Origin: Escherichia coli
GTDB taxonomy: Bacteria; Pseudomonadota; Gammaproteobacteria; Enterobacterales; Enterobacteriaceae
Reading direction: 5' to 3' (one strand)
DNA: 64,000 nucleotides
NCBI RefSeq assembly: GCF_003334765.1
Contig: NZ_QOWT01000005.1
Shown here: in pieces, positions 50,549 to 52,695 of the stretch
How the letters are laid out: every line of letters starts with the position of its first letter
How positions within the stretch are numbered: position 1 is the stretch's first letter
Translations under genes and position numbers: made by a program
Notes under the pieces: generated by a model
Database searches by the model: none
Seen by the model: the letters and a program-made list of their open reading frames with translations, nothing else
Told to the model about the DNA's origin: nothing

Positions 50549-51619
50549 ATGAAGCTGGTTGAACACTACATCATGCGTGGTACGCGCCGTCTGGTGCTGA
50601 TTATCGTCGGTTTTCTGATCTTTATTTTCGCCAGCTACTCCGCACAGCGTTATCTGACCGAAGCGGCAAATGGGACCTTAGCTCTTGATGTTGTGCTGGA
50701 TATCGTTTTCTACAAAGTGCTGATTGCACTGGAGATGTTGTTACCTGTTGGTCTGTATGTGTCAGTTGGCGTGACGCTAGGGCAGATGTATACCGACTCG
50801 GAAATTACCGCTATCTCTGCGGCGGGGGGCAGTCCGGGACGCTTGTACAAAGCCGTTCTTTATCTGGCGATACCGCTAAGTATTTTTGTCACCCTTCTGT
50901 CGATGTATGGTCGGCCGTGGGCTTATGCGCAGATTTATCAACTGGAGCAACAGTCGCAGTCGGAGCTGGATGTTCGCCAGTTGCGGGCAAAGAAATTTAA
51001 CACTAACGATAACGGACGAATGATCCTTTCGCAGACGGTTGATCAGGATAATAATCGCCTGACTGACGCGCTGATTTATACTTCTACTGCCAATCGAACC
51101 CGCATTTTCCGCGCCCGTTCGGTTGATGTGGTTGACCCATCACCTGAGAAACCGACCGTTATGTTGCATAACGGGACCGCCTATCTTCTCGATCATCAGG
51201 GGCGTGACGACAACGAACAGATCTACCGTAATCTGCAATTACATCTGAATCCGCTGGATCAAAGCCCTAACGTCAAACGCAAAGCAAAATCGGTCACGGA
51301 GCTGGCGCGCTCCGCCTTTCCTGCCGATCATGCCGAACTGCAATGGCGACAAAGCCGTGGCCTGACAGCATTGTTGATGGCGCTGCTGGCCATTTCATTA
51401 AGTCGGGTAAAACCGCGGCAAGGGCGATTTTCAACGTTATTGCCACTGACGTTGCTGTTTGTTGCCATTTTTTATGGCGGCGACGTCTGCCGTACGCTGG
51501 TGGCTAACGGTGCGATTCCCCTCATTCCTGGTTTGTGGTTAGTACCCGGACTCATGCTAATGGGCCTGCTGATGCTGGTCGCACGCGACTTCTCTTTGCT
51601 GCAGAAATTTTCCCGATGA
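50549..51619 (+). CDS. LptF-like permease (YjgP/YjgQ family), paralogue of LPS-export permease
   Basis: 356 aa; N-terminal TM helices, large periplasmic domain, C-terminal TM helices, the architecture of LptF/LptG. Confidence 0.7.
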   Translation: MKLVEHYIMRGTRRLVLIIVGFLIFIFASYSAQRYLTEAANGTLALDVVLDIVFYKVLIALEMLLPVGLYVSVGVTLGQMYTDSEITAISAAGGSPGRLYKAVLYLAIPLSIFVTLLSMYGRPWAYAQIYQLEQQSQSELDVRQLRAKKFNTNDNGRMILSQTVDQDNNRLTDALIYTSTANRTRIFRARSVDVVDPSPEKPTVMLHNGTAYLLDHQGRDDNEQIYRNLQLHLNPLDQSPNVKRKAKSVTELARSAFPADHAELQWRQSRGLTALLMALLAISLSRVKPRQGRFSTLLPLTLLFVAIFYGGDVCRTLVANGAIPLIPGLWLVPGLMLMGLLMLVARDFSLLQKFSR

Positions 51620-52695
51620 ATGTTTTCAGTCGCTATTTAATCCGTCATCTCTTTCTCGGTTTTGCCGCCGCCGCAGGGCTATTGCTGCCGCTTTTTACCA
51701 CCTTCAACCTGATTAACGAACTGGATGATGTCAGCCCGGGCGGTTATCGCTGGACTCAGGCGGTGCTGGTGGTGCTGATGACCTTACCGCGTACACTGGT
51801 CGAACTTTCGCCGTTTATCGCATTATTGGGAGGGATTGTTGGCCTGGGGCAGTTATCGAAAAACAGTGAGCTTACCGCCATTCGCAGCACTGGGTTTTCT
51901 ATCTTCCGTATTGCACTGGTGGCGCTGGTTGCCGGGATATTGTGGACTGTTTCGTTAGGCGCGATAGATGAGTGGGTGGCGTCGCCATTGCAGCAACAGG
52001 CGCTGCAAATCAAATCGACTGCCACCGCGTTGGGGGAGGACGATGACATTACCGGCAATATGCTTTGGGCCAGGCGCGGTAATGAATTTGTGACGGTGAA
52101 ATCGCTGAACGAGCAGGGCCAGCCTGTGGGCGTGGAGATATTTCATTATCGCGACGATCTCTCGCTCGAATCCTACATTTTTGCACGCAGTGCCTCCATT
52201 GAAGACGACAAAACGTGGATCCTGCATGGTGTGAATCATAAAAAATGGTTGAATGGCAAAGAAACGCTGGAAACATCAGATAATCTTGCCTGGCAATCGG
52301 CCTTCACCAGTATGGATCTTGAAGAGTTATCGATGCCGGGGAATACTTTTTCTGTCCGTCAGCTTAATCATTACATCCATTATTTGCAGGAAACCGGACA
52401 ACCCAGCAGCGAATACCGCCTTGCACTGTGGGAAAAACTGGGGCAACCGATCCTGACCCTGGCGATGATTTTGCTGGCTGTGCCGTTCACCTTTAGCGCC
52501 CCGCGCTCGCCAGGGATGGGTAGCCGTCTCGCTGTAGGCGTCATCGTTGGCTTACTCACCTGGATCAGCTATCAAATCATGGTCAATCTGGGGTTGCTAT
52601 TTGCGTTGAGTGCACCTGTTACCGCGCTCGGTTTACCGGTAGCGTTTGTGCTGATGGCGTTGAGCCTGGTGTATTGGTATGACAGACAACATTAA
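51616..52695 (+). CDS. LptG-like permease (YjgP/YjgQ family)
   Basis: ORF 51535-52695; start chosen at ATG 51616 (MNVFSRYLIRHL...) overlapping the previous stop (ATGA); 359 aa. Confidence 0.7.
   Translation: MNVFSRYLIRHLFLGFAAAAGLLLPLFTTFNLINELDDVSPGGYRWTQAVLVVLMTLPRTLVELSPFIALLGGIVGLGQLSKNSELTAIRSTGFSIFRIALVALVAGILWTVSLGAIDEWVASPLQQQALQIKSTATALGEDDDITGNMLWARRGNEFVTVKSLNEQGQPVGVEIFHYRDDLSLESYIFARSASIEDDKTWILHGVNHKKWLNGKETLETSDNLAWQSAFTSMDLEELSMPGNTFSVRQLNHYIHYLQETGQPSSEYRLALWEKLGQPILTLAMILLAVPFTFSAPRSPGMGSRLAVGVIVGLLTWISYQIMVNLGLLFALSAPVTALGLPVAFVLMALSLVYWYDRQH

Follow-up and report, generated by a model that had tools for sequence, protein, structure and literature searches.

Why should Escherichia coli carry, besides the LptF/LptG permeases of lipopolysaccharide (LPS) export, a second pair of the same kind with no ATPase gene beside it, and what would such a pair move? 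The question is raised by a stretch of 64,000 nucleotides (the window) of the E. coli chromosome, from contig NZ_QOWT01000005.1, in which two such genes, here called lptF2 and lptG2 (products F2 and G2), follow each other between positions 50549 and 52695. The region is the E. coli sphingolipid locus. In our reading, to which we give a probability of roughly 0.8, the two genes would code for the membrane part of a second extractor of the Lpt type (type VI ATP-binding cassette, ABC) serving the sphingolipid of that locus.

50549..51619, + strand: lptF2 (F2), LptF-type permease paralog, 356 amino acids, ATG start; matches PF03739, TIGR04407 and LptF chains in the PDB
51616..52695, + strand: lptG2 (G2), LptG-type permease paralog, 359 amino acids; matches PF03739, TIGR04408 and LptG chains in the PDB

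A preliminary description of this DNA, made from its letters alone, had recognised two adjacent, translationally coupled proteins with LptF/LptG architecture, and this holds. The two genes overlap by 4 bases (ATGA): in 'CCGATGAATG' the lptG2 ATG occupies 51616-51618 and the lptF2 TGA 51617-51619. The longest reading of the lptG2 open reading frame (ORF), 51535-52695, would begin with a GTG, but this extension is unneeded because the Pfam and NCBIfam alignments of G2 start at residues 4-6 of the 359-residue form; the fitting start is the ATG at 51616, which was also chosen by the Prokaryotic Genome Annotation Pipeline (PGAP). Both proteins match PF03739 (LptF_LptG) over nearly their full length (E 2.6e-54 for F2 and 1.4e-68 for G2), and both exceed the curated cut-off of their own NCBIfam model, F2 with 319.8 bits on TIGR04407 (LptF, cut-off 230) and G2 with 305.1 bits on TIGR04408 (LptG, cut-off 240). 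The profile search for the LptF/LptG (YjgP/YjgQ) family that had been proposed as a check thus rules out that the proteins are unrelated to it. Each protein scores much lower on the model of the other subunit, and solved structures sort them in the same way, F2 matching LptF chains with E values from 6e-32 to 1e-20 and an LptG chain at 7e-6 at best, and G2 matching LptG chains at about 1e-41 and LptF at merely 9e-4. This reciprocal preference means that the pair consists of one F-type and one G-type subunit and is therefore not one type present twice.

The hydropathy profiles suggest a 3+3 arrangement of transmembrane segments around a periplasmic insert. In G2, hydrophobic segments lie at residues 8-26, 50-68 and 88-106 and again at 275-293, 305-323 and 335-353; in F2 there are three N-terminal and at least two C-terminal segments, one C-terminal segment falling under the threshold. 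The polar stretch between the two bundles measures 150-170 amino acids (about 150 in F2), and the profile alignments of both proteins cover the jellyroll region. PGAP names both proteins LPS export permeases. Identity to the canonical K-12 subunits is low, 28.5% between F2 and LptF and about 28% between G2 and LptG.

What, then, would this pair carry? As annotated, the genes run in the order hyb, yghU, gss, pitB, yghT, yghS, yghR, full-length yghQ (labelled 'lipopolysaccharide biosynthesis protein'), a hypothetical protein gene, a YtfJ-family gene, lptF2 and lptG2. Beyond lptG2 and convergent with it follow spt and the genes for an acyl carrier protein, an epimerase-family reductase and a fatty acyl-AMP ligase, and then yghO, glcC and glcDEF. 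The preliminary description had placed the pair between the flippase gene and the convergent lipid operon, which is correct for its general position, but the pair does not stand immediately beside the flippase gene, since the genes at 49122-49946 and 49955-50518 intervene.

45358..46050, - strand: yghT, third P-loop kinase-like paralog, divergent (sequence match)
46146-46174: promoter-like site before yghS (consensus match only)
46224..46937, + strand: yghS, P-loop kinase-like paralog, opens the string ending in lptG2 (sequence match)
46969..47727, + strand: yghR, P-loop kinase-like, with Walker A 'GCDGTGKS' (dTMP-kinase model at 33 bits, under the cut-off)
47773..49122, + strand: full-length yghQ, candidate MOP/Wzx-type flippase, 449 amino acids (weak NCBIfam MOP flippase match; at least 7 hydrophobic segments)
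49122..49946, + strand: hyp274, conserved cytoplasmic all-helical protein with a CHAD-like fold, 274 amino acids
49955..50518, + strand: YtfJ2, YtfJ-family periplasmic protein directly upstream of lptF2 (TIGR01626, 216 bits)
52693..52727, no strand: G+C-rich hairpin with a 16-bp stem (consensus scan)
52730..53902, - strand: spt, serine palmitoyltransferase (NF047599 at 599 bits, cut-off 500)
53902..54150, - strand: acpR, dedicated acyl carrier protein (profile match; PMC9386255)
54182..55096, - strand: NAD-dependent epimerase/dehydratase-family reductase (its CerR-type assignment rests on the literature)
55093..56817, - strand: aasR, fatty acyl-AMP ligase / acyl-AcpR synthetase (NF006624 at 871 bits; PMC9386255)
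57188..58330, + strand: yghO, N-acyltransferase of the five-gene dihydroceramide set, candidate bacterial ceramide synthase

Seven genes of the + strand (yghS, yghR, yghQ, the 274-residue protein gene, the YtfJ paralog, lptF2 and lptG2) form a string in which neighbours overlap or are separated by gaps of no more than 45 bases. The hairpin, the strongest in the region, takes up nearly all of the 34-bp gap between the convergent stop codons of lptG2 and spt and is likely a two-way terminator. When the E. coli BL21 genes were expressed, the ligase was found to load the dedicated acyl carrier protein and Spt then to make 3-oxo-sphinganine (Padilla-Gomez et al. 2022, PMC9386255); according to the same report the five dihydroceramide genes, one of them coding for the N-acyltransferase, form a cluster in E. 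coli BL21, as they do in Caulobacter. The gene context points to a sphingolipid, and not LPS, as the probable substrate of F2 and G2.

Export pairs of this kind are already known. The names LptF2 and LptG2 were given in Caulobacter by a paper of 2024, and Olea-Ozuna et al. propose that the Caulobacter Lpt paralogs, together with the flippase candidate CC_1166, carry phosphosphingolipids to the outer membrane. In a preprint of April 2026, Uchendu, Isom and Klein (bioRxiv 10.64898/2026.04.12.717747) report that lptF2, lptG2 and lptC2 of Caulobacter tolerate deletion only in cells without spt or without the ceramide kinase, that the pair is dispensable unless the anionic sphingolipid is produced, and that LptF2 and LptG2 co-purify as a complex, together with the sole LptB, there being no second lptB in Caulobacter. 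Figure 2B of that preprint draws the E. coli UTI89 locus, and its Discussion places lptF2/lptG2 in many alpha- and gammaproteobacterial sphingolipid loci, with lptC2 seemingly restricted to Caulobacter. The novelty of our finding is therefore limited, since the preprint both shows the function in Caulobacter and includes the E. coli locus in a published figure.

Relatives of the pair occur in the same kind of neighbourhood. Orthologs of G2 with 63-75% identity are spread across the Enterobacterales (E. albertii, Shimwellia, Hafnia, Citrobacter, Serratia, Erwinia, Pantoea and Sodalis), and in Serratia the entire module (yghT/S/R, the flippase, the 274-residue protein gene, the YtfJ paralog, F2 and G2) adjoins the spt-acp-reductase-ligase genes, although in a different orientation. 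A search of 1.84 billion cluster representatives returned a few G2 clusters at 44-50% identity, followed by a continuum at 30-37%; the closest come from Pseudomonas umsongensis and its relatives and from Methyloversatilis. Taking relatives as 50%-cluster representatives plus context look-ups, we examined the surroundings of ten of them, Serratia being the closest and 33% the lowest identity. The context L003 (1.8 kb) was too short to inform; the nine longer contexts, among them those labelled L002 (Serratia), L004-L008, L013 and L014, belong to relatives at 33-66% identity and include P. umsongensis, Methyloversatilis, Arhodomonas and metagenome contigs.

An F-then-G pair stands among sphingolipid genes in all nine of these longer contexts. 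A yghO homolog was found by tblastn in L004-L008, L013 and L014 have a gene of matching size and position, and outside the Enterobacterales each F2/G2 pair examined has a yghO homolog beside it, at 49-60% identity. The complete spt-acp-reductase-ligase set is present on four contigs, and two more hold a partial set at the edge of the contig or locus. The head-group genes vary from locus to locus, while the F2/G2 pair and the ceramide genes remain together. In pairwise comparison, identity to the E. coli pair is 30-66% for F2 and G2 of the related loci; with canonical E. coli LptF and LptG, all of these proteins share 24-30%. A neighbour-joining tree, which is star-like with long tips, places canonical E. 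coli LptG elsewhere; it was used solely for the point that the nearest relative is a protein other than canonical LptG. The suggestion of the preliminary description that the pair belongs to a dedicated lipid extraction or export machine is thus supported, by the spt/yghO-type locus, by the nearest relatives, all of which lie in such clusters, and by the Caulobacter export data.

These contexts also yielded observations of their own. MsbA-like fused ABC exporters are encoded in two loci (L006 1-233, P. umsongensis; L007 15019-16731, Methyloversatilis) and provide the only nearby ABC ATPase domains. As E. coli and Arhodomonas have a MOP/Wzx-type flippase instead (the yghQ counterparts of Serratia and Arhodomonas match Pfam Polysacc_synt_3), the flipping step seems to have been solved in two ways. 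In non-enterobacterial sphingolipid loci a protein of 139-160 amino acids recurs beside the acyl-ACP (acyl carrier protein) synthetase gene (L004 5377-5841, L007 5337-5756, L013 1116-1580, L014 5409-5891); it matches no NCBIfam model, contains the histidine-triad-like motif 'HFHVIPRY', and was rejected as an LptC2, not being LptC-like. The loss in G2 of Lys34, Lys40 and Lys41, the lipid-A contacts of LptG, was dropped as a mark of a new substrate since canonical LptG of P. aeruginosa also lacks them in the same alignment.

What would drive the pair? The preliminary description had found no LptB-like ABC ATPase nearby, and indeed a six-frame scan of the whole 64-kb window found no ORF that combines Walker A with an LSGGQ-type signature, and tblastn with authentic K-12 LptB returned no LptB there (best E 0.39). 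The only P-loop proteins in the window are YghT, YghS and YghR, which are weakly dTMP-kinase-like and without the ABC signature; a Walker-A-like string in the 274-residue protein was rejected as a real P-loop, as the Serratia ortholog does not keep it. A stand-alone LptB-like gene is likewise missing from the nine longer contexts. The oddity that the preliminary description implied for a pair without a nearby ATPase is not borne out. In K-12, canonical lptFG lie beside pepA at 4.486 Mb and lptB lies in the string kdsD-kdsC-lptC-lptA-lptB at 3.344 Mb; since canonical lptFG are thus also more than 1 Mb from lptB, and equally unlinked to it, an lptF2/lptG2 pair with no neighbouring ATPase is normal for the family.

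The probable source of a motor is the LptB that the cell already has. Our E. coli sample comprised 5,426 complete genomes, and lptB was present as exactly one full-length copy in all of them in a DNA-level search sensitive down to roughly 65-70% identity. In the alignment E85 of F2 corresponds to E84 of LptF and E85 of G2 to E88 of LptG, E84 and E88 being the coupling-helix glutamates that dock in the LptB groove. This glutamate and a glycine eight residues on (Glu-x7-Gly) are invariant in seven F2/G2 pairs and in canonical LptF and LptG. Such conservation shows compatibility with an LptB-type motor and is no proof of binding. Of the two options considered in the preliminary description, an ATPase borrowed from elsewhere is supported, by the co-purification of Caulobacter LptF2/LptG2 with the sole LptB, the retained coupling glutamates and the single-copy lptB of E. 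coli; for the other, a machine working differently, we found no support.

Is the pair maintained in E. coli? The 2.9 kb around it match strain PF9285 and several others at 100% identity and are present in 4,152 of the 5,426 genomes. The pair itself is found at a coverage of at least 80% in 4,106 genomes, and is absent from about 1,300 (~24%); some 4,100 genomes have both ORFs intact at 95-100% identity. Canonical lptFG occur in every one of the 5,426, and F2/G2 are for this reason to be seen as an extra copy. K-12 MG1655 (3124000-3138000) has an IS5 element (insH9/IS5LO) between a truncated yghQ and yghO, and has none of the eight genes that run in the window from that of the 274-residue protein through the YtfJ paralog, lptF2, lptG2, spt and acp to those of the reductase and ligase. 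Compared with a strain that is 4% divergent, the window gives a ratio of nonsynonymous to synonymous substitution rates (dN/dS) of 0.03 for lptF2 and 0.075 for lptG2, neither gene having stops; for aasR and yghO the ratio is unusable in this strain pair because an indel shifts the coordinates. Both lptF2 and lptG2 are under strong purifying selection.

Two side observations concern the recent history of the locus. When 50549-52695 of the window is compared with a second E. coli strain (L012 6001-8147), lptG2 differs at 7.3% of bases (dS 0.29) and lptF2 at 1.1% (dS 0.04), a contrast suggesting that a recombination boundary lies close to where the two genes meet. In some E. coli assemblies (P0023, P0456, P0323) we found fused ORFs, namely GspC-LptG2, GspM-274-residue protein and YtfJ-LptF, which imply deletions or rearrangements between the sphingolipid locus and the nearby type II secretion genes.

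With these elements in mind, one may outline how the system would work. Spt, AcpR, AasR, the CerR-type reductase and YghO would make dihydroceramide at the cytoplasmic face, a step in which the action of the first three E. coli enzymes has been demonstrated. The head group would then be modified, probably by YghR/S/T and the CHAD-fold protein, and the lipid presumably flipped by the MOP-family protein YghQ. According to this model, an F2-G2 heterodimer, with two copies of the sole LptB seated on its coupling helices, would extract the lipid from the outer leaflet of the inner membrane. The lipid would climb the beta-jellyroll domains and, by homology with LPS transport, would probably be passed to the shared LptC/LptA/LptDE bridge.

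Several points weigh against this model. The F2-G2 complex, LptB binding and the sphingolipid-dependent essentiality have been shown for the Caulobacter homologs only, and Caulobacter thus supplies all of the experimental support for the pair; the orthology of the E. coli proteins to CCNA_01214/CCNA_01213 is based on the gene context common to both and on what the preprint says in its Discussion and in the legend of Figure 2B. The coupling-helix motif is common to the whole family, and would therefore indicate compatibility with an LptB-type ATPase and not LptB binding as such, and a second LptB more diverged than the limit of our copy search is possible. For the hand-off step, tblastn with E. 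coli LptC and LptA found no homologs of either in the window or the related loci. Finally, our literature search found no report of a native E. coli sphingolipid, nor of yghQ or yghO phenotypes, and the locus may be silent in the laboratory, since extracts of BL21 with an empty vector gave no detectable 3-oxo-sphinganine (PMC9386255).

Other explanations of the pair have to be weighed against the same data. F2 and G2 could be a spare or condition-specific LPS extractor, redundant with LptFG and acting on LPS or a modified lipid A, an idea invited by their passing of the LptF and LptG 'equivalog' cut-offs and by the PGAP names. With only ~28% identity to the canonical pair, however, and with a distribution that follows the spt/yghO clusters through several bacterial orders, whatever the head-group genes, such a role is improbable; moreover, K-12 and the ~24% of E. 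coli that lack F2/G2 keep canonical lptFG, and the essentiality of the Caulobacter pair depends on spt and the ceramide kinase. A motor other than LptB, be it the YghR/S/T P-loop proteins or, in a passive or proton-driven machine, no ATPase at all, is suggested by the three Walker-A proteins encoded in or next to the operon and by the lack of an ABC ATPase in the window. Yet YghR/S/T resemble dTMP or nucleoside kinases and have no ABC signature, and F2/G2 are found without any YghR/S/T homologs in the loci of Pseudomonas, Methyloversatilis, Arhodomonas and the metagenomes; as the Glu-x7-Gly motif, which suits the groove of an LptB-type ATPase, is invariant and LptB co-purifies with the Caulobacter pair, we consider this quite improbable.

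The pair could also be a remnant, decaying or silent, that no longer has a function in E. coli. K-12 has lost the locus, IS5 standing in its place, and about 1,300 of the 5,426 genomes are without it; the BL21 extracts showed no native product, and fused or truncated versions occur in some assemblies. A remnant would hardly be expected, however, to retain two intact ORFs at 95-100% identity in ~4,100 genomes with dN/dS of 0.03-0.075, or to have orthologs 63-75% identical across the Enterobacterales with the whole module kept, and we regard this explanation as very improbable. An extractor dedicated to the sphingolipid of the locus remains our preferred reading of F2 and G2.

The genes around the pair suggest where the E. 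coli system may have features of its own. The yghT, yghS and yghR genes (45358-47727) encode proteins with 35-45% mutual identity and are kept in Serratia, and their homologs are absent from the Pseudomonas, Methyloversatilis and Arhodomonas loci, which have DAGK-type kinase, CDP-alcohol transferase and nucleoside triphosphate (NTP)-transferase genes. This distribution suggests that the chemistry of the head group may be different in Enterobacterales. A gene for a DAGK/LCB5-type ceramide kinase is present in several non-enterobacterial loci and missing from that of E. coli; since three P-loop paralogs are found there instead, the E. coli head group is likely to differ from that of Caulobacter. 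YtfJ2 has a single hydrophobic segment, at its N terminus, which we read as a signal peptide, and contains no cysteine. Its AlphaFold2 model (mean predicted local distance difference test score, pLDDT, 87) has a thioredoxin-like fold, with TlpA/ResA/CcmG-type proteins as the best Foldseek matches (E ~2e-7), and the gene is kept next to F2/G2 in Serratia. YtfJ2 may be a non-redox accessory of the exporter; as a stand-in for LptC2 or LptA2 by fold it was rejected, its fold being that of thioredoxin and not a beta-jellyroll.

A bolder scenario may be sketched, which we consider doubtful and offer as speculation. In it, most E. coli and many Enterobacterales would make a sphingolipid that has gone undetected, YghR/S/T and the CHAD-fold protein, of a polyphosphate-binding type, would build its head group, F2/G2 with LptB would export it, and YtfJ2 would be a new accessory or hand-off factor replacing LptC2.

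These findings bear on how Gram-negative bacteria supply their outer membrane with a second kind of lipid. Two different permease pairs are apparently served by a single LptB motor, and drugs directed against LptB or the Lpt bridge would then also hit sphingolipid export. About three quarters of sequenced E. coli, including BL21 and uropathogenic strains, have an intact synthesis-and-export locus under purifying selection, while the K-12 reference lacks it, and this gap in K-12 could be the reason that E. coli still counts as free of sphingolipids. The feature itself is real, was correctly interpreted in the preliminary description, is functionally plausible and is already known as a kind.

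Three known systems help to place the pair. The canonical E. coli LptB2FG(C) complex (PDB 6MHU/6MI7) belongs to the same Pfam and NCBIfam families and, like F2/G2, has F and G subunits encoded by overlapping genes that are unlinked to lptB, with the conserved coupling glutamate; its 3+3 transmembrane segments and periplasmic domain are probably shared by F2/G2 as well. The two pairs differ in that they are only ~28% identical, in that F2/G2 are accessory and lie in a sphingolipid cluster whereas LptFG are universal and lie next to pepA, and in their cargo, hexa-acylated LPS for LptFG and presumably a two-chain ceramide derivative for F2/G2. In Caulobacter crescentus, LptF2 and LptG2 (CCNA_01214/CCNA_01213 = CC_1156/CC_1155) are, as in E. 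coli, a second pair inside a locus with spt, acp, reductase, acyl-ACP-synthetase and ceramide-synthase genes, and both loci have a flippase candidate nearby and no lptB. Caulobacter has LptC2, whereas the E. coli locus is without it and has the cysteine-free thioredoxin-fold YtfJ paralog; for the head group, Caulobacter has the DAGK/LCB5-type ceramide kinase CpgB, and E. coli three dTMP-kinase-like P-loop genes and the CHAD-fold protein. The pairs of P. umsongensis, Methyloversatilis, Arhodomonas and uncultured gamma- and betaproteobacteria, 33-53% identical to that of E. coli, share with it the overlapping F-then-G order and the place beside yghO homologs, mostly together with spt-acp-reductase-ligase genes, and differ in their head-group modules, which draw on NTP transferases, a CDP-alcohol phosphatidyltransferase, a metallophosphatase, a DAGK-type kinase, a HIT-like small protein and glycosyltransferases.

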